This document shows positions 398 to 51,766 of a DNA stretch of 64,000 bases, in pieces. Numbering within the stretch: the first letter of the stretch is position 1; each line of letters begins with the position of its first letter. The notes under the pieces are model-generated. The model saw nothing but the letters and a program-made list of their open reading frames with translations, was not told the DNA's origin and ran no database searches. The position numbers and the translations under genes were made by a program. The DNA is from Ardenticatenia bacterium (GTDB taxonomy: Bacteria; Chloroflexota; Anaerolineae; Ardenticatenales; Ardenticatenaceae), in contig JAUZRY010000009.1 of assembly GCA_030949995.1 (NCBI GenBank), forward strand, positions 6,195-70,194. The letters are read 5' to 3'.

Positions 398-600
398 GCC
401 CAACCGAACAGTCGGACGAGGCCCAGCCGTGGTTCGGGGAAGTCCGGTGAGAGTCCGGCGCTGTCCCGCAACTGTGATGGTGGCGTTGACTGCCTAAGCC
501 AGGTCGCCGGCCACGGTTGTGCTCCGGCACCCCTTCGCGGAAAGGGAGCGGAGCGTTTGCCGCACTGCTGCCTTCCTGTGAGCGCCGGGGAGGCTTTTTC
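398..600 (+). promoter_or_regulatory. Cobalamin (B12) riboswitch with terminator-type expression platform
   Basis: Conserved core GGGGAAGTCCGGTGAGAGTCCGGCGCTGTCCCGCAACTGTGATGG at 435-480. B12-box-like AAGCCAGGTCGCCGGCC at 496-513. Downstream hairpin GCCTTCC(570-576)/GGGAGGC(588-594) followed by T5 at 595-599. The element precedes corrinoid-uptake-type genes. Confidence 0.8.
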
Positions 601-21008: not shown

Positions 21009-21123
21009 CCTATCACATCCTGTCACTAGCCCGAACGGGCGGTGAGGCAAGCAGCAATTGGCAGGCCCATTGTCATCCCCACCGCACAGGCCTGGCCACA
21101 GACAGCAGCACGTGAACGAGGGA

Positions 21124-23118
21124 ATGGGTGAGCGCTTGAGGGGACGCAAGCTGGTGGCTGCCGCCCTGGCGTGGACGGCGGTGGCTGCCGGGGTAGGCGT
21201 ATTGGCAGCCTTCAGCCTTGGCCGTAGCCCGGAGGACACGGGAGCACTCCTAGCCTTGGCCTTGATGGCCGGTGCAATGTTGGTGTTGGCCGTGTGGGAG
21301 GCCAAAAACCGCTCTGGGGCCCACCGGCCTCCCCTGGTGACGGTGATTTGGCAGGGCATTGTTGAGCAACCTTGGCGCGGGGTCGCCTTCGTGGGCGCCT
21401 TCTCGCTTCTGGCATCCGTCATGCGCCGTTTGCCCCACATGCCCCCATCGGCCGATTTCACCGCCGTGACGGTCACCTGGCTCGTGGCGTTTCTCTTCTA
21501 CGTGGTGGCTGTTGCCCCCCCACGCCCGCGCCCGCGCCACGACTGGAGCATCTGGTGGGAGGTCAACCGGGCGAATGTGCTCATGCTGACGGCCATTGTG
21601 GGCGTGGCCCTGTGGCTGCGGGCTTGGGGGCTTGACCGGGCACCAGCTGCGTTGGCCGGCGACGAGGCGACGTTTGCCCGGGAAGCCTTGCGGGTGCTCC
21701 GCGGGGAATTGCGCAACCCGTTCATGACGGGGTGGCTCTCCCAGCCCACGATGACATTCTTCTACACGGCCCTGAGCGTGCGTGTCTTTGGGTTCTCTGT
21801 GATGAGCGTGCGGCTCCCTTGGGCCATTGTGGGCACGCTCTCCGTGCTCGTCACTTTCTGGCTGGTGAGTCGCCTCAAGGGAGGCTACGTGGGCATGGTC
21901 ACAGCCGCCCTGTTGGCCACCTATCACCTGCACGTCCACTACTCCCGCCTCAACCTGAACAACATCGCTGATCCCTTCTTCATGGGCCTCACGCTTCTGT
22001 GGCTCATGCGGGCACTCGACCGACGTAGCCCCCTGGACTGGGTGTTGGCCGGCGCGGCTGCCGGTGGCGCGCTCTACGGTTACACAGGTGGCCGCCTAGT
22101 GCCTGTGGTGGCCTTGGTGGTGCTCCTCTACTATTGGGCAGGGCGTGGGCGGCGCTTTTGGGCCGAGCAGCGTGTCGGCCTGTTGAGCGCTGTGGGCGCT
22201 TTCCTCATTGTGGCCGCGCCCATGCTCCAGTTCGCGTATCGTTTCCCCGACGAGTTCAACGGGCGCATCAATCAAGTCGGCATCGTGCAGAACGGCTGGC
22301 TGGCGCAGGAGATGGAAGCTCGGGGTCAGGGGGCGCTTCCCATCCTGTGGGACCAATTCCAACGAACAGTGTTGGGGTTTCTTCTCTATCCTGATCGTGC
22401 GCCCTTCTACAGCCTCCCCCACCCGTTGCTCGACCCTTTCTTCGGCACCTTGTTCTTCGCCGGGTTGCTCTACGCCATGGTCCGCCTTGTCATTTCCCCC
22501 ACGGACCGGCGTCTCTTTCCCTTCGTGGCCTGGTGGTGGGGCGGAGTGATTTTTGGTGGCGTGCTCACCCAAGGGCCGCCCTCCAGCCAGCGCTTGGTCA
22601 CCTTGAGCGTGCCGGTGACCTTCTTCATCGCCTTGGCCCTGTGGCGAATGACGTTCCTCCTCCGCCGGCTGTGGGGCGGCTTACCGGCACTCCCCGTCCT
22701 GGTGGCCGGTGTTCTGCTCTTTGCCCTGATCAATGTGCGGCTCTACTTTTTCGAGTACATTCCATCGGCCACCTACGGGGGGCCAGTAGCATAACTGGCC
22801 ACGCATGTGGCCCCTGTTGCGCGGCCGCTGGTGCCGGAGCACCGCCTCTACGTCGTTGGGGCGCCCTGGTTCTTCTGGGACTTTCCCACCTTCAGTCTGT
22901 TGCTGCCAGACGCCCGGGCTACTGACATCATTGAGCCCATTACGCGCCCACCTGAGGGCATGGTGCCCGAGGGGGAGGGTGCAATCTTCCTTTTCGTCCC
23001 GGAGCGGGCTGACGAACTGGAGCTGGTGCGCCAGGCCTATCCCCGGGGCCGCCTCCATGAGATCCGTGTGCCTCCGGACAACACCCTTGCCGGCCTGCTT
23101 TACATCGTGCCACCCTAA
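21124..23118 (+). CDS. GT39/ArnT-like (PMT_2) membrane glycosyltransferase, interrupted by an in-frame TAA at 22792-22794
   Basis: More than 10 TM helices, with DEATFAREA near the first loop. ORF 22807..23118 is in the same frame and resembles the usual C-terminal soluble domain (RLYVVGAPWFFWDFPTFSLLLP...). The start is uncertain (21058 or 21124). Confidence 0.7.
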
Positions 23119-23180: not shown

Positions 23181-23209
23181 TTGGCAATGCCCGCACTTTG
23201 TGTTAAGAT
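23181..23209 (+). promoter_or_regulatory. Candidate sigma70-type promoter (TTGGCA-17 nt-TAAGAT) for the ECF sigma gene
   Basis: TTGGCA at 23181-23186 and TAAGAT at 23204-23209, about 90 nt upstream of the ATG at 23301. Confidence 0.5.
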
Positions 23210-23300
23210 GTGGGCATCCCCTTGGGCGGTGTGGAGCTGACAGCACACTGGGAAGAGGAACCTGCCAGCCGGTGGTGCTGGGTGAGAACAGGACCCGCCT

Positions 23301-24005
23301 ATGCACAGCCATGGAGGAAATGAGTCGATCACTCATTTGTCCAACGACCTTTTAGCCAAACGGTGCGCTGAGGAACGGGAGCGCTTCTTCAGACGACAAC
23401 CGACAGACAACCGCTTCTGCTTTGAGCTCTTCCGGCGGGCCATCCTGTACCGCAACGAGCACGCCTGGCAGATTCTCTACGAGCAATACTCCTCATTGGT
23501 GAGCGGGTGGATTCGCCAGAGCAGTGGCTTCCAAGCTGGCCAGAGTGACTTGGAGGAATTGGTGAACTTGACCTTCACCAAATTCTGGCAGTCAGTACCT
23601 GCTTCCAAATTCCGCAGCTTTGTCTCCTTGGAAGCCGTCTTGCAGTATTTGCGCCTCTGTGCCGGCAGCGTGGTCATGGACATGGCCCGCCGGCGCAAGC
23701 ACGAGAGCCGGCTTATGCCCTACGAAACCATCATGGGAGGAATGGCCGACCACCGGAACGTCGAACAGGATGTGTTGGATGACCTCACCCGTCAGCGCTT
23801 CTGGCAGGAAATCCAGACCTTGTTGGCCAACGAGACCGAAATGAAAGTCATTTTCTGCTACTTCATTCTTGGCATGAAACCTCGCCAAATCCAAGCGGCC
23901 TATCCCGACACGTTTCCCTCAGTCGAGCTCGTGTACCAAATCAAGCGCAACGTGCTCAACCGGTTGCGCCGCTCTAAGAGCTTGGAGCGATGGCTGAAGG
24001 AATGA
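23301..24005 (+). CDS. ECF-type (sigma-70 family, group 4) RNA polymerase sigma factor
   Basis: Region 2-like FELFRRAILYRNEHAWQILYEQYSSLVSGWI and LVNLTFTKFW. Region 4 HTH-like MKVIFCYFILGMKPRQIQAAYP...VELVYQIKRNVLNRLR. Confidence 0.8.
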   Translation: MHSHGGNESITHLSNDLLAKRCAEERERFFRRQPTDNRFCFELFRRAILYRNEHAWQILYEQYSSLVSGWIRQSSGFQAGQSDLEELVNLTFTKFWQSVPASKFRSFVSLEAVLQYLRLCAGSVVMDMARRRKHESRLMPYETIMGGMADHRNVEQDVLDDLTRQRFWQEIQTLLANETEMKVIFCYFILGMKPRQIQAAYPDTFPSVELVYQIKRNVLNRLRRSKSLERWLKE

Positions 24006-24240
24006 GCGAAAAATGGTGAACACGCGCGTTTATCAAGTGTAGTCCTCATGCACTGAAGTTGCTGGGGGCACAGGGGATTGGCCTGCAGGAGAGCTGTGGA
24101 ACCACATGAATAGCCTATGAGGTGCGGAGACACCCTTCCAGCTCCATCTCTTCCCAACAACATTCCCCACAACATGTGAGTAGCCCGAACAATGTGAGGC
24201 AAAGCGGGCTGTGAACTTTAAGGAAAAAGGAGTAGGTGCG

Positions 24241-24963
24241 ATGAGCTCACATGTCGATGAGCGGGCATTGGAGCAGGTGTTGGCTGGCGAAGCGCCTCCT
24301 CACGTTGAAGAACACGTGACCACCTGTGCGCTCTGCCGGCGAAGGGCAGCCGAGCTGGCCACGGAAGAGGCTGTCCTCATCCGCGTGTTGCTGCGAATGT
24401 GTTGCCCGGATTCCCTGAAGCTCGGCGAATGGGTGGCGGGCCTGTTGCCCGAGTCGGAGGCCCGAAACGTGGCCCACCACGTCACCGTCTGCCCCCAATG
24501 TCAAGAAGAGGCTGCCTTGGCCCGGGAGATGCTGCACTTGAGCACCCGAGAATCCTCCCTCACCGTGGCCGCACGAAAGGCACGCCGTCTGGTGGCCACC
24601 CTGCTGGCCGACGAATCCCCTTCCTTGGCGACGGCTCCCTTCGCCCTGCGGGGCGCGCCGGCCAGCGGCAGGCAGTACCAAGTTGGTTCCCTGCGCATTA
24701 CGTTGGACTTAGAGCGGGAGGCGCCGGCCAGCTACACCATTTTCGGGTTAATCGTGAGCGAGGCGGAGGATATTGGGCATTTTGAAGGGCTTCGTGTGCG
24801 CTTGGAACAAGCTCCTGATGTGGAAGTGGCGACCACAGAGGTTGACGATCTGGACACGTTTGTCTTCGCTCACGTCACTCCGGGCACGTACATGATCGAG
24901 ATTGAAACCGGTGAAGGTGTGGCTGTGATCGAAGATCTCATTGTGGGCAATGGCCAACACTAG
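24241..24963 (+). CDS. Soluble anti-sigma factor with two zinc-finger (ZAS, HxxxCxxC) motifs
   Basis: AAAGGAG RBS. Motifs HVTTCALC and HVTVCPQC. No TM helix. The C-terminal part is beta-rich (FVFAHVTPGTYMIEIETGEG). Confidence 0.7.
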   Translation: MSSHVDERALEQVLAGEAPPHVEEHVTTCALCRRRAAELATEEAVLIRVLLRMCCPDSLKLGEWVAGLLPESEARNVAHHVTVCPQCQEEAALAREMLHLSTRESSLTVAARKARRLVATLLADESPSLATAPFALRGAPASGRQYQVGSLRITLDLEREAPASYTIFGLIVSEAEDIGHFEGLRVRLEQAPDVEVATTEVDDLDTFVFAHVTPGTYMIEIETGEGVAVIEDLIVGNGQH

Positions 24964-24986
24964 CGGGGTGACTCGAAAGGTGACCC

Positions 24987-27929
24987 GTGATGTGTTCCCC
25001 AGAGGCGCTGTTGGCACAGTGGGAACAAGTTGCTCCCACACAGTTCCGAGCATGGTTCACTGCCCACCTTGATCACCTCACTGACGCCTTCTTCGAGCGA
25101 ATGAAGGCCCGCATTGCCGCCCACATGCAGCAGGATGCCAAGCGGGCTTTGGAATTGGCCCAGAGCCTCCTCCTTGCCGCTGAGCTCACCCAACGCCCCA
25201 TGCATACACTTCTAGGGCTGATGGCCTTAGCAAACGTCTACGGCTTCGCCCAAGGGCGGTATCAAGAGGCGCTGGAGACGTTCGAGGAGGCCTTGGCCCT
25301 GGCCAAAGCGTGTGGTGCTCACGCGCAAGCCCACCGCATTCGCATGGCCCAGATTTACGTCTTGGGCATGCTGAGCCGCTTTGATGAAGCCTTGGCCATA
25401 GGCGAAGCCCTCTGCCGCGAAGTGCGCGAGGCCGGCAACTGGTTGGTCTACATGGGCACCCTCAACAACATGGCCATCGTCTGTCGGCGACGAGGAGACT
25501 TGAGCCGCGCTCTCGCCCTTCAGGACGAACACGAACGCTTCCTGAGCCAATGCCCTCTTACCCCCTCCGAATATTATAACCGCCTTTTCCGCCTCCACCT
25601 CAACCGGTCCATCATCTTCATCCACCTGAACGCCTTCCAGGAGGCCATCCAGGTCGTTCAAGAAGCCCTCCACATTGCCGAGAACATCATAAAACAGCCG
25701 GCCCGTGTGGCCCGTGCTAAAGACAGCTTGGGGCTGATCTACTTTTACAAAGGAGCATACAACGACGCTTTGGCCTACTTTCAGGAGGCACGGCGAACGT
25801 TCGAGGCGTGCCACTTGCAGCGGGACGCAGTCATCGCCCGCCTCTTTGAGACCCAATGTCTCCTGGCCCTCAACGACGTGGAGACGGTGGAGCAGACGGC
25901 GTCTCACATCATCGACTACTGCGTGCAAACAGGCATGGACCACGAATTGGCCTTGGCGTACTTATACCGCTCCAAGGCCCGCCGACACATGGACCGGCTC
26001 TTGCTGGCGGCCAACGATCTGGAGCAGGCCGCCATGATCTTCAAGGCCCACAACAACAAGGCCTGGTTAGGGCAAGTCTACTTGGAATTGGCTTACGTCT
26101 TCCTGGCCACGGATAGCCTCTTCGAGGCCACACTGGCCGCGGAGACTGCCCAACACTACTTTGAACGACTCGACTTACCCCTTGAGCGAGCCCAAGCGTT
26201 GCTCGTCCAAGGCCTTGTGGCTGAGCAGCGCGACTGGCCGGCCATAGCCCGTCGCCTCTACAGGGACGTGTTGCACATCGGTCGACGTGAACAGTTGCCC
26301 ATGCTGATCTACCCGGCCTGTTACGGCTTGGCCCGGCTGGAGCGGCGGGTGGGACACGTGGAAGCCGCCAGAGCTCGCTTCCGCCAGGCCATCCAAGCGA
26401 TCGAGGAATTGCGTGGCAGTGTGGCCGTTGAACTCCGTGTCCCCTTCCTGGCCGACAAGTTGGACCTCTACGAACAGGCTATTGCTCTGGAACTGGACAC
26501 CGACGCGCCCGAAGACGCCTTTCGCCTCGTCCAATACGTAAAATCACGGGCCCTGCTCGACTTGTTGGGCGAGGAACACAGCCTGCGATTTCAGGCCGTT
26601 GGCGCTGACGAGCGCCAGATCGTGGAAGAAATTCACCATCTCCGCGAGCGATGGCGTTGGCTTCAGCGTAGAGCCCTCTACATCTCCATGCAGACCAAGG
26701 CCGACTCGGAGTTCGCCTTGGACCGGCGCCAACGTAAGGCCCTTCTGGAAGAAGCCCAGGAGTGCGAAAGTCGTCTGCGGGCTCTCTTTCGGGAATTTCA
26801 AGTTCGTCGTACGGCGGCACGCCGTTTGACCCCCTCCCTGGCAGAGGTCTCCGTGAACGATGTGCGCGCCCACCTGCCCCCCGACACATTGCTCGTGGAG
26901 TATTTCGCCATTGCCGGCCGGCTGTGGGCCTTCGTGGTGACCGATAAGCGCCTTCGCGTCCGCGAACTCTGTGACATCACGCACATACATCACCTCATGG
27001 GGCGTTGGCGTCTGCTCATGGGCCACATGGCCTCGTCCGGTCGAGCCCGCTTGGAGGCGGTGCAGCGAGTGTTGGGCCACGTGTACGAGTTGATCTTCGC
27101 CCCGTTGGAGATCCATGAGCTGGACAGAAGCCACATCTACGTCGTTCCCCACGGCGTGCTTCATTACTTGCCCTTCGCCGCGCTCTACAACCGGCGTGAC
27201 GGTCGCTATCTGGTGGAGGAGGCCGCTGTGGCCCGCTTGCCCAGCAGCGGTCTCCTCGGTGTGCTGCGAGCTCGTGCCAAGCGTGCGGCCGAGGGGACGC
27301 CGCTGATCTTGGGCCACAGCCATCACGGCATGTTGCCTGTGGCCGTCGAGGAGGCCCGTGACGTGACCAACACTGTTGGAGGAGAATGTTATCTGGAGGA
27401 AGAAGCCTTGGGTGAACGGCTCACCAGGGGCGAAGTGTGGCGCCCCCTCATCCACGTGGCGGCTCATGGCCTCTTCCGCACTGATGCCCCTCTTTTCTCC
27501 TCCATCTACTTGGCCGACGGGCCCCTCACCACCCTCGATCTCTTCAATGCCTCCATGCCCAGTGGCTTGTTGGTCCTGAGCGCCTGTGAGACAGGATTGG
27601 GCGTCGTGCACCCCGGCGATGAAATTATGGGGCTGAGCCGAGCGTGCCTGCACGCCGGTGCCCAATCCCTGCTGCTCAGCCTGTGGCGCATCGAAGACCG
27701 GACCACGCGGACCTTCATGCTGGACTTGTACGCCCACTTGCTGGCCGGCGCCTCCCCGGCCGAGGCTCTGGCAGCCGTGCAGCGTCGCTGCCTCCACGAT
27801 CCCGCGACGGCACATCCCTTCTACTGGGCCGCCTTCTCCGTGACCGGCGACGCCTTCACGCCCGTCCGCTTGGCTGCTACACGGCTTGGGCGTTCGGTGG
27901 CTCCCCGCTCCTGTCATAGGGCGCCGTAG
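24987..27929 (+). CDS. TPR-repeat CHAT-domain (caspase-like) protease
   Basis: About 600 aa of TPR-like helical repeats, then CHAT motifs IYVVPHGVLHYLPF, LIHVAAHGLF (catalytic His) and LLVLSACETG (catalytic Cys), then HPFYWAAFSVTGD. No signal peptide. The start is 23 nt after the anti-sigma stop. Confidence 0.85.
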   Translation: MMCSPEALLAQWEQVAPTQFRAWFTAHLDHLTDAFFERMKARIAAHMQQDAKRALELAQSLLLAAELTQRPMHTLLGLMALANVYGFAQGRYQEALETFEEALALAKACGAHAQAHRIRMAQIYVLGMLSRFDEALAIGEALCREVREAGNWLVYMGTLNNMAIVCRRRGDLSRALALQDEHERFLSQCPLTPSEYYNRLFRLHLNRSIIFIHLNAFQEAIQVVQEALHIAENIIKQPARVARAKDSLGLIYFYKGAYNDALAYFQEARRTFEACHLQRDAVIARLFETQCLLALNDVETVEQTASHIIDYCVQTGMDHELALAYLYRSKARRHMDRLLLAANDLEQAAMIFKAHNNKAWLGQVYLELAYVFLATDSLFEATLAAETAQHYFERLDLPLERAQALLVQGLVAEQRDWPAIARRLYRDVLHIGRREQLPMLIYPACYGLARLERRVGHVEAARARFRQAIQAIEELRGSVAVELRVPFLADKLDLYEQAIALELDTDAPEDAFRLVQYVKSRALLDLLGEEHSLRFQAVGADERQIVEEIHHLRERWRWLQRRALYISMQTKADSEFALDRRQRKALLEEAQECESRLRALFREFQVRRTAARRLTPSLAEVSVNDVRAHLPPDTLLVEYFAIAGRLWAFVVTDKRLRVRELCDITHIHHLMGRWRLLMGHMASSGRARLEAVQRVLGHVYELIFAPLEIHELDRSHIYVVPHGVLHYLPFAALYNRRDGRYLVEEAAVARLPSSGLLGVLRARAKRAAEGTPLILGHSHHGMLPVAVEEARDVTNTVGGECYLEEEALGERLTRGEVWRPLIHVAAHGLFRTDAPLFSSIYLADGPLTTLDLFNASMPSGLLVLSACETGLGVVHPGDEIMGLSRACLHAGAQSLLLSLWRIEDRTTRTFMLDLYAHLLAGASPAEALAAVQRRCLHDPATAHPFYWAAFSVTGDAFTPVRLAATRLGRSVAPRSCHRAP

Positions 27930-29992: not shown

Positions 29993-30108
29993 GAACCCCT
30001 CCATGTCCCTTCTCCACACCAACTGTCCTGGATGGTGGCACTTTGTCTCGTCTTCTCCTCACCATTCCAGGGCACTTGCCACCGTTCTGTCATGAACGCA
30101 TAACGGAT

Positions 30109-30137
30109 TTGATTTTTCCCCCGACCTGGTGTATGAT
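30109..30137 (+). promoter_or_regulatory. Candidate sigma70-type promoter (TTGATT-17 nt-TATGAT) upstream of ricT
   Basis: TTGATT at 30109-30114, and TATGAT at 30132-30137 preceded by TG. Confidence 0.5.
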
Positions 30138-51085: not shown

Positions 51086-51766
51086 ATGACACCGTTGCGG
51101 CGCTGGTACCGACAGCTCAGCCCACGACAGCGCAGTGTATACGCCCTCTTCCTGACGATTATCGCGCTGACGTTGCCCTGTTACTTGGTCGGGCTGACCC
51201 TCCTCGTCGCCCTGCCGCCGTTGGACACGTCCACCCCGAACATGCCCCGCCCCACGGCCACATTCGTGCCGCCAGCGGTGCCTACCACGGCCATCCCTAC
51301 AGCCACGATTCCGCCGACGGCGACTCCCTTGCCCACAGCCACGCTGCCGCCCACGGCTACTTCGGAGCCCTCGCCCACGCCGACACCCGTGCCCACGGCC
51401 ACGCCGGCGCCCAGTCCCACGCCTCTGCCGACGGCCACGCTGCCGCCCACGGCTACTTCGGAGCCCTCACCCACGCCGACACCCGTGCCCACGGCCACGC
51501 CCGCAAGCACGCCGGTGCGGCCGACCCCCACGCCGGCGCCCACGTTCACGCCGACTGTGGAGCCCACCCAGGTGGCCGTGCCCTCGCCCACGCCTACAGC
51601 CACGCTTGCGCCGGCGCTGCCCACGGCGACGCCGGTGCCTACCACGCCGCCCACGGAAACGCCAACCCCGGAGCCGCCCACGCCGACGCCGGTGCCCACG
51701 ACGCTGCCCACGGAAACGCCGGCGACACCCACGCCTGCGCCGACGTCCACGCCAGGGGGCGGGTAG
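51086..51766 (+). CDS. Membrane-anchored Pro/Thr-rich low-complexity protein
   Basis: GGTGGAG RBS. TM segment VYALFLTIIALTLPCYLVGLTLLVAL followed by about 170 aa of P/T/A repeats. The other frames over this region give Arg/Gly-rich nonsense. Confidence 0.65.
   Translation: MTPLRRWYRQLSPRQRSVYALFLTIIALTLPCYLVGLTLLVALPPLDTSTPNMPRPTATFVPPAVPTTAIPTATIPPTATPLPTATLPPTATSEPSPTPTPVPTATPAPSPTPLPTATLPPTATSEPSPTPTPVPTATPASTPVRPTPTPAPTFTPTVEPTQVAVPSPTPTATLAPALPTATPVPTTPPTETPTPEPPTPTPVPTTLPTETPATPTPAPTSTPGGG
51326..51517 (+). repeat. Two tandem copies of a 96-bp unit inside the Pro/Thr-rich gene
   Basis: The 65-nt core at 51341-51405 recurs at 51437-51501 with one mismatch. It encodes TLPPTATSEPSPTPTPVPTATP twice. 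Confidence 0.85.

Follow-up and report, generated by a model that had tools for sequence, protein, structure and literature searches.

A conserved gene triad of Chloroflexota encoding an ECF-like sigma factor, a soluble zinc anti-sigma protein and a TPR-CHAT protein: a candidate protease-coupled switch

Described protease-coupled sigma factors and the locus

In type III-E systems of clustered regularly interspaced short palindromic repeats (CRISPR), the TPR-CHAT protease Csx29 of Craspase cleaves Csx30, the inhibitor of the sigma factor CASP-sigma; this requires Cas7-11 with its CRISPR RNA (crRNA) and a target RNA (PMC10028731). In a type III CRISPR system, the SAVED-Lon protease CalpL, which is activated by cyclic tetra-adenylate (cA4), cleaves CalpT, the anti-sigma factor of CalpS, a sigma factor similar to those of the extracytoplasmic function (ECF) class (bioRxiv 10.1101/2024.05.08.593097, PMC11417357). 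The ECF sigma factor DdvS of Myxococcus xanthus is paired with the transmembrane anti-sigma factor DdvA, which consists of a cytoplasmic zinc-binding anti-sigma (ZAS) domain and a periplasmic TPR-CHAT part (PMC11506125). Self-cleavage by the CHAT domain of DdvA, which would free the sigma factor, has been proposed but is unproven; the release is completed by RseP, and DdvA controls an island of CRISPR genes and of genes for cyclic oligonucleotide-based antiphage signalling (CBASS) (PMC11506125). Here, we analysed a locus of an Ardenticatenia bacterium that encodes an ECF-like sigma factor, a soluble ZAS protein and a TPR-CHAT protein. It is located on the plus strand (23181-27929) of a 64-kb stretch of contig JAUZRY010000009.1, named the window in the following, which belongs to a metagenome-assembled genome of the phylum Chloroflexota.

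The three open reading frames (ORFs) are co-oriented and were found exactly at the coordinates given in an earlier note, which had been made from the letters of the sequence. The first ORF (23301-24005) codes for the sigma factor of 234 residues, which is annotated by NCBI as a 'sigma-70 family RNA polymerase sigma factor' (MDQ7028495.1). The second (24241-24963) codes for the ZAS protein of 240 residues, a 'hypothetical protein' according to NCBI (MDQ7028496.1). Its longest ORF begins with a GTG at 24211; the ATG at 24241 is preceded by the ribosome-binding site AAAGGAG and is identical to the NCBI start. The third ORF (24987-27929) begins 23 nt past the stop codon of the ZAS gene and codes for the TPR-CHAT protein of 980 residues, which lacks a membrane segment. 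The four motifs that had been read from the translations, HVTTCALC (24313-24336), HVTVCPQC (24478-24501), VAAHG (27456-27470) and LSACETG (27576-27596), are encoded exactly there. In a Kyte-Doolittle scan, which is a heuristic and not a dedicated predictor, no 19-residue window of the three proteins exceeded a value of 1.45, whereas neighbouring membrane proteins reached 2.3-2.4. Since a hydrophobic segment is missing, all three proteins are considered soluble and free of a signal anchor, which agrees with the cytoplasmic location assumed previously.

The locus resembles Craspase in combining a cytoplasmic TPR-CHAT protein, whose catalytic dyad is in register, with a putative inhibitor of an ECF-like sigma factor; cleavage is only predicted for the present case. 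It differs in several respects. Csx30 does not belong to the ZAS proteins, and the matches of our ZAS profile included none of its chains. Csx29 cuts after Leu or Met, whereas the candidate site described below follows an Arg. Finally, neither a CRISPR array nor an Rfam CRISPR match was found in the 64-kb window, which for these elements bears out the previous statement that a CRISPR component is missing; no protein search for Cas genes was made. The CalpL/CalpT/CalpS system follows the same logic of protease, anti-sigma factor and sigma factor, but its protease is of the Lon type with a SAVED sensor and depends on CRISPR, in contrast to the TPR-CHAT protein encoded here. CalpT, CalpS and CalpL chains were all missing from the PDB matches of the profiles deduced for the sigma, ZAS and CHAT families. 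The locus has in common with DdvA a zinc-binding N-terminal anti-sigma domain that is tied to a TPR-CHAT part with a His/Cys dyad. However, DdvA unites these parts in a single polypeptide that also contains a membrane helix, whereas two soluble proteins encoded by separate genes are found here and a membrane step is absent. Moreover, the CHAT domain is by sequence nearer to that of Csx29 than to that of DdvA, and a CBASS/CRISPR island is not present. Kaur et al. 2020 (PMC7159879), who surveyed conflict systems with caspases, make no mention of sigma factors, and PADLOC, when applied to the three proteins, reported no match to a defence system apart from a generic TPR.

Conservation of the triad and domain structure of its proteins

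In order to assess the conservation of the locus, one genome per species was scanned, which yielded 170 relatives of the sigma factor; the best 80 of these 170 in a similarity ranking were taken. ORFs were called in the corresponding loci and were then scored with hidden Markov models built from the alignments of this analysis. Nearly all sampled loci belong to Chloroflexota, namely to Ardenticatenales, Promineifilaceae, Caldilineales and Anaerolineales, plus one Ktedonobacteraceae and one Dehalococcoidia. A single contig (L039, DATHSI010000227.1) carries the label Candidatus Sulfomarinibacteraceae (Acidobacteriota). At the sigma/ZAS junction it closely resembles a Chloroflexota contig (L038), which indicates either mis-binning or a recent transfer.

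In each of the 78 loci that offer room downstream, the direct downstream neighbour of the sigma gene is the ZAS gene. Thus, the genes of the ECF-like sigma factor and of the soluble ZAS anti-sigma protein form an obligate pair, which can be regarded as shown or at least as strongly inferred. A TPR-CHAT gene comes next in 45 of the 56 species-level loci having at least 4.2 kb of downstream sequence. Close relatives (57-83% identity) retain the order sigma-ZAS-CHAT though the downstream flank shifts from VanW to ClpX/ClpP, and the triad is also retained in relatives with a sigma identity of 31-38% and unrelated flanks. The arrangement is not a product of chance, and the conserved neighbourhood on which the earlier note had built its proposal exists in many species and next to changing flanks. 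The ZAS and CHAT genes overlap or are separated by at most 30 nt in 27 of 48 cases, and none of these junctions bears the bipartite promoter-like motif described below. In four loci lacking the CHAT gene (L016, L050, L079, L085), an ORF of approximately 270-300 codons was observed at a distance of -3 to +49 nt from the ZAS gene; it may code for an alternative partner.

An incidental adjacency, or a feature of one lineage that was spread by lateral transfer without any functional link, is most improbable given this distribution over several Chloroflexota orders. In its favour, the GC content of the module is slightly lower than that of the window (0.603 versus 0.643, which is the 3rd percentile of windows of the same size), with values of 0.552 for the sigma gene and 0.523 for the sigma/ZAS spacer; moreover, the flanks vary between lineages. 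However, the GC content at third codon positions (0.70-0.75) is like that of the neighbouring genes (0.73-0.79), and the immediate relatives share the same flanks, which consist of housekeeping genes also in the window. The AT-richness that had been noticed by eye is therefore real but modest. The lateral acquisition it had been taken to hint at is weakly founded and not supported: the dip is small, the third codon positions are unaffected and synteny with relatives is retained.

Sequence of 1.7 kb or more beyond the CHAT gene was available for 46 triads, and in 39 of them the next gene on the same strand codes for a secreted S8 subtilase of approximately 590 residues, which possesses an N-terminal signal anchor. 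This fourth gene is missing from the clade of the window, which comprises the window itself, L001/L012, L003, L006, L013 and L014. A similar gene context has been reported for ECF54: according to section 3.3 of PMC8999054, which cites Huang 2015 and Casas-Pastor 2021, genes of this group adjoin conserved genes whose products contain carboxypeptidase, subtilase or CHAT domains, and on this basis proteolytic regulation has been proposed. In the group description of Casas-Pastor et al. 2021 (PMC7826278), ECF54 is actinobacterial and comes without a putative anti-sigma factor. ECF271, as listed in PMC8999054, is a group of Chloroflexi that has a soluble anti-sigma factor of unknown mechanism. Compared to ECF54, for which only the published description was used, the relatives of our locus likewise combine a CarboxypepD_reg-like protein, a TPR-CHAT protein and an S8 subtilase, with the window itself lacking the latter. 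They differ in the phylum, which is Chloroflexota, and in that the 'carboxypeptidase-like' protein bears a canonical ZAS domain.

The sigma factor is recognised only weakly by sequence models. With Pfam, Sigma70_r2 was matched at E=0.03 (14.5 bits versus a cut-off of 24) and region 4 was not matched; ECF models of NCBIfam gave E-values of 8e-5 to 2e-3, far under their cut-offs. A profile of 28 family members found RpoE of Rhodobacter sphaeroides (2q1z_A, E=0.008) as the best match in the PDB, which is the partner of the anti-sigma factor ChrR. The AlphaFold model, whose mean predicted local distance difference test (pLDDT) value is 85.9, consists of two helical domains, sigma-2 and sigma-4, which are connected by a low-confidence linker (residues 141-150). 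The protein is small and lacks sigma-3, as is typical of two-domain ECF sigma factors. A Foldseek comparison of this model with the PDB gave leading matches that are exclusively members of the sigma-70 family, many of them of the ECF class (among others sigmaE, SigL, SigH, CnrH, AlgU and BldN), with E-values of 3.8e-5 to 0.1 and a probability of ~1.0 for the best. The designation as an ECF-type sigma factor, which the earlier note had chosen, is supported by the fold, whereas at the sequence level all models remained under their cut-offs. A tblastn search with the sigma factor against plasmid records, including one Nonomuraea chromosome, gave no match. CHAT matches in records of Nonomuraea and Streptomyces were rejected as unrelated CHAT genes that have no sigma, ZAS or S8 partners.

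The sigma factor possesses a conserved N-terminal extension of approximately 50 residues with an RCAEE-RFF motif; the model shows this extension with good confidence (pLDDT 88-92) as a helix that packs against sigma-2. Three of its cysteines, Cys22 (23364-23366), Cys40 (23418-23420) and Cys120 (23658-23660), occur in 83 of 84 orthologues; Cys40 sits within the peptide pattern by which the loci were retrieved, so that only the counts for Cys22 and Cys120 are unbiased. Sigma-2 harbours two of the three and the extension one. Sigma factors do not usually have such cysteines, and their presence hints that this protein may itself contain a metal or redox site.

In the ZAS protein, a tandem pair of zf-HC2 (ZAS) units is joined by a linker to a C-terminal immunoglobulin (Ig)-like beta-sandwich. 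The second unit contains the canonical site C55-x24-H80-x3-C84-x2-C87 (24403-24501), whose ligands are kept in 72-73 of 73 orthologues and in all 148 best representative clusters. The zf-HC2 model of Pfam scores 26.8 bits on this motif (gathering score 22.2), and the same unit is the segment that aligns with known anti-sigma factors in profile comparisons: RslA (3hug_B, 2.8e-5), the N-terminal domain of DdvA (5e-3), ChrR (2q1z_B, 0.011) and also RsiW. Homology of the protein to the class I zinc anti-sigma domains is therefore supported on the basis of its sequence, and its designation as anti-sigma-like in the earlier note was confirmed. The first HxxxCxxC motif (H25, C29, C32; 24313-24336) belongs to an accessory unit; it occurs in about 50 of 73 genome-derived orthologues and in 130 of the 148 top representative clusters, and it is missing from short forms of about 194 residues. 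When the ZAS profile was run exhaustively with HMMER, 338 clusters (50% identity) were identified at E<=1e-30, almost all of which comprise 230-260 residues. This exhaustive search is needed to see the family, because a word-indexed search detects few relatives, namely 7 if started from one sequence and 10 if started from a profile. One entry (P0164, 623 residues), in which a ZAS part runs into TPR repeats, was rejected as evidence for a natural fusion, since its C-terminus looks out of frame; it probably represents two genes joined by a frameshift in a poor assembly.

The AlphaFold model of the ZAS protein (pLDDT 76.9) is a single-chain model based on an alignment of 11 rows, and for this reason the linker and the geometry of the domains relative to each other are poorly constrained. 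It shows confident helices for residues 7-99, values below 50 for residues 101-141 and an eight-stranded sandwich for residues 144-235 (24670-24945, pLDDT 70-91). The sandwich has a CarboxypepD_reg/NOMO-like Ig fold: Foldseek found MG, FN3 and Ig-like domains, a profile comparison gave NOMO2 with E=4.5e-5, and weak Pfam matches to SdrD_B and CarboxypepD_reg were seen. Residues 120-141 of the low-confidence segment contain the motif F-A-L-R137-G138 (24640-24654), which is a candidate cleavage or docking site. In the family it reads [LFY]-A-[LV]-R-G, with the Arg being conserved in 72 and the Gly in 68 of 73 orthologues.

The best PDB matches of the sigma and ZAS profiles, and in part those of the folds, come from the pairs ChrR/RpoE (R. 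sphaeroides, ECF11) and RslA/SigL (M. tuberculosis). ChrR and RslA both have the Cys/His-HxxxCxxC zinc site, and ChrR is soluble and carries a C-terminal beta-domain; for RslA, whose database entry describes it as a probable membrane protein, the comparison covers the anti-sigma domain only. In contrast to the protein studied here, ChrR and RslA contain one ZAS unit instead of two and are not coupled to a dedicated protease gene, and the beta-domain of ChrR is a cupin rather than an Ig-like sandwich. Based on homology and strict gene linkage, the 234-residue protein is very probably a divergent ECF-like sigma factor and the 240-residue protein its cognate soluble anti-sigma factor, which is built like ChrR from a ZAS part and a beta-domain.

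The CHAT domain of the third protein comprises residues 693-955 (27063-27851). It matches PF12770 with E=3.2e-53 over all profile positions (1-289 of 289), and significant matches to TPR families are located N-terminal to it. When the protein was aligned pairwise by HMMER to Csx29 of Scalindua brodae, whose structure is solved, the motifs VAAHG and LSACETG coincided with the catalytic residues H585 and C627 of the latter. The corresponding His827 (27465-27467) and Cys867 (27585-27587) are invariant in all 48 full-length orthologues; the caspase-like dyad is intact and not misaligned, as the earlier note had read it. Csx29 is the nearest solved CHAT protein for the family profile (E=1.3e-14). 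An orthologous relationship was nevertheless rejected, since the Csx29 model NF041237, whose cut-off is 300 bits, gave 44.5 bits and aligned to nothing but the CHAT core. The TPR part resembles arrays of the kinesin-light-chain/LGN, AfsR and Rap/NprR types.

Two further modes of action of the CHAT protein on the switch have to be considered here, namely trimming of the N-terminal extension, which would make the protein a pro-sigma factor, or a non-proteolytic function as anti-anti-sigma factor that acts via the TPR array (partner switching). The conserved extension with its invariant Cys22 and the RCAEE-RFF motif would suit the former. The latter would be consistent with the protein-binding capacity of TPR arrays and the similarity to sensors of the Rap/NprR and AfsR types, and the tight coupling of the ZAS and CHAT genes suits a complex of any kind. 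However, a confident helix that packs on sigma-2 is unlike a disposable pro-peptide, and the invariance of the dyad argues that proteolysis matters. Taken together, these two modes are unlikely.

Promoter-like elements and candidate regulon

Upstream of the sigma gene, a consensus scan identified a sigma-70-like promoter candidate, TTGGCA-N17-TAAGAT with an extended TGTG element (23181-23209, plus strand). Four related genomes share the pattern TTGGCA-N17-TGTGTTAAGAT without any change, although the spacer around it diverges. In the larger sample, TTGRC-N17-19-TAnnWT precedes the sigma gene in 14 of 84 loci, compared to 0.9 expected. A bipartite autoregulatory motif of the ECF type is not enriched upstream of the sigma gene, where it was found in 2 of 84 loci.

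A bipartite promoter-like motif of this kind, TGAgcGAAAAA-N14-CGTTTAt, lies over the stop codon of the sigma gene (24003-24033, plus strand) and reads into the ZAS and CHAT genes. The family consensus at this position is ATGCCTGAAAA-N13-CGTT(T/C)AT; its A-tract is conserved to 81-99% and the CGT to 97-100%. The copy of the window occupies 24008-24032; 0.09 matches would be expected by chance. The motif occurs at the same place in most of the 84 loci. It does not reflect a coding constraint, since loci with an earlier end of the sigma gene still contain it further downstream. For the ZAS gene, a leader of about 200 nt (24033-24240) is predicted in the clade of the window, whereas most relatives have one of 25-35 nt; the window and L001 have a pyrimidine-rich stretch in common, and the RNA structure of the leader was found to be nothing unusual (z=+1.27).

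With a strict version of the pattern, 76 matches were found in the 1.26 Mb of all loci, whereas about 2 are expected when the estimate from shuffling the window is scaled up. The sigma/ZAS junction accounts for 42 of the 76; of the other 34 matches, 29 are on the same strand, mostly just past the CHAT stop codon or 5.4-6.4 kb downstream. The genes behind these additional copies code for S8 subtilases, a C25 (gingipain-like) peptidase of 1260 residues with a signal peptide, a TCAD2-domain protein, a NACHT/STAND fragment and proteins of 757 and 781 residues with no assigned function; examples of such sites in relatives are L021:14576-20551, L031:14537-18847, L063:16926-17535 and L067:16559-17350. 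The composition of this set suggests a regulon of protease and conflict-type genes. A second match in the window (30093-30118, minus strand, GAAAAATCAAATCCGTTATGCGTTCA) lies in the VanW/PSP1 intergenic region, antisense into VanW; its spacer of 15 nt is longer than that of the family motif, and it is therefore probably due to chance.

The conservation of these elements makes it rather likely that a housekeeping-type promoter drives the sigma gene and that ATGCCTGAAAA-N13-CGTTTAT is the target promoter of the sigma factor itself. Free sigma factor would then induce its anti-sigma factor and the protease and, in most relatives, also the S8 subtilase and further motif-bearing genes.

The promoter architecture also bears on the main alternative to a protease-coupled switch. 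The ZAS protein could act as sensor and anti-sigma factor at once, either by thiol oxidation or zinc loss as in RsrA and RslA or by means of its beta-domain as in ChrR, and the CHAT protein would be a mere member of the regulon, i.e. a cytoplasmic effector protease alongside the subtilase and the C25 peptidase that does not act on the switch. Like other targets, the CHAT gene is located downstream of a predicted sigma-dependent promoter. On the other hand, it never has a motif copy of its own, whereas the S8 gene and later genes do. Being always part of the transcription unit of the anti-sigma gene, without a motif of its own, it fits the switch better. Its position directly behind the anti-sigma gene, often with an overlap, is the usual signature of complex partners.

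Proposed switch and its meaning

We consider it a serious, if still tentative, possibility that the triad forms a cytoplasmic protease-coupled sigma/anti-sigma switch, in which the CHAT protein acts on the anti-sigma factor. The more specific version, according to which TPR-CHAT binds the anti-sigma factor, cuts its linker upon a cue sensed by the TPR array and so frees the sigma factor, is proposed with slightly greater reserve and by analogy to the systems described above. In this version, transcription of the sigma gene from the housekeeping-type promoter would provide, by read-through, a basal level of anti-sigma factor. Free sigma factor, acting on the bipartite motif, would produce more ZAS and CHAT protein and in most relatives also secreted proteases. 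The TPR-CHAT protein, being co-produced with the anti-sigma factor, would bind it, perhaps via the beta-sandwich. A cue sensed by the TPR array would make the CHAT domain cut the flexible linker, with the candidate site lying after Arg137 of A-L-R-G. The cut would release or destabilise the ZAS fragment that binds the sigma factor, which would thereby become free. Since substrate and protease would be induced together, negative and positive feedback would be coupled. The cleavage step gains some plausibility from the tight linkage between the ZAS gene and the CHAT gene, from the Arg-Gly pair that is almost invariant within a linker of low confidence, and from DdvA as a precedent.

Several observations weigh against this proposal. 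The CHAT gene is not adjacent in 11 of the 56 sigma/ZAS pairs, i.e. in 20%. The S8 gene is absent from all 11 loci lacking CHAT; it thus co-occurs with CHAT, and the joint gain and loss of both genes also fits CHAT being an output rather than an input. Arg-Gly is present in 53 of 55 CHAT-linked loci and in 8 of 11 CHAT-less ones (Fisher p=0.03, not corrected for phylogeny), and it may serve something else, as these 8 loci retain it without a CHAT gene. In the clade of the window, no other motif-bearing gene is in view. All loci were retrieved via one peptide pattern, and the frequencies are properties of that sample. ZAS domains can sense redox state or zinc in their own right, which would make a protease unnecessary. 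Finally, textbook ECF promoters have motifs such as TGAAAC-N16-CGTA; because the half-sites are spaced more closely here, the assignment of the -35 element is uncertain.

Some of these points, namely the shared occurrence of CHAT and S8 and the CHAT-less pairs with their retained Arg-Gly, together with the invariant set of zinc ligands, the ChrR- and RslA-like architecture and profile matches, and the three invariant cysteines of the sigma factor as a hint at redox or metal control, are what one would expect if CHAT were only an effector under the control of a self-sensing ZAS protein. That explanation leaves the near-invariant Arg-Gly in a disordered linker unaccounted for, and DdvA demonstrates that a ZAS domain and TPR-CHAT can be parts of one regulatory polypeptide (PMC11506125). 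We judge it to be somewhat unlikely, yet the strongest of the alternatives.

Some further features of the window and of the module's surroundings were recorded. A PMT_2-type membrane glycosyltransferase gene located 5' of the module is split into two ORFs in different frames (21058-22794 and 22807-23118, plus strand; 578 and 103 residues). Its orthologue in L001 is a single gene of 654 codons, and the split is probably due to a frameshift or an assembly error. L003 and L006 likewise have PMT_2 genes ahead of the module, and in L008 a paralogous sigma gene is followed by a PMT-like gene. The sole Rfam match in the window is an adenosylcobalamin (AdoCbl) riboswitch at 411-558 (plus strand; 63.6 bits versus a gathering score of 50). 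The sole short-range repeat seen in the CRISPR check is a direct repeat of 24 nt or more, which is present in two copies 96 nt apart (51338-51357 and 51434-51453, plus strand).

Protease-coupled sigma/anti-sigma switches with a link to CHAT have been described in principle, and for ECF54 there has been a first glimpse of the gene association. What this analysis adds is a split architecture in which all proteins are soluble and the anti-sigma factor is a (double) ZAS protein, its spread in Chloroflexota, the promoter architecture with the regulon, and the candidate Arg-Gly site. Cytoplasmic release of a sigma factor that is triggered by a protease has so far been shown just for the CRISPR accessories Csx29/Csx30 and CalpL/CalpT; for DdvA, where it has been proposed, the signal is still unknown. 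The family described here, which has at least 170 species-level sigma relatives, would be a simpler, all-soluble version that needs neither CRISPR nor a membrane step. Cys867, the near-invariant Arg137-Gly138, the sharply defined promoter motif and the visible regulon offer experimental handles, by which it becomes testable what a bacterial TPR-CHAT protein senses and how it is coupled to transcription. If ECF54 shares this gene set, a group published as having no anti-sigma factor would have to be reinterpreted.

In its broadest form, the interpretation is more speculative than the switch itself. A free-standing TPR-CHAT sensor protease may license the sigma factor by cutting a double-zinc anti-sigma factor at Arg-Gly, with protease and substrate both being under the control of the sigma factor's own promoter at the stop codon. 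The output would be a secreted subtilase and a C25 peptidase, in some genomes also STAND and TCAD proteins, and the ECF54-type context would be ZAS-controlled as well. Such a system would be independent of CRISPR and possibly represents an ancestral form of the logic seen in Craspase-Csx30-sigma and DdvA. The secreted proteases and the occasional STAND or TCAD proteins hint at a role in conflict or cell fate, and in the filamentous Chloroflexota the switch may serve immunity, programmed cell death or development.

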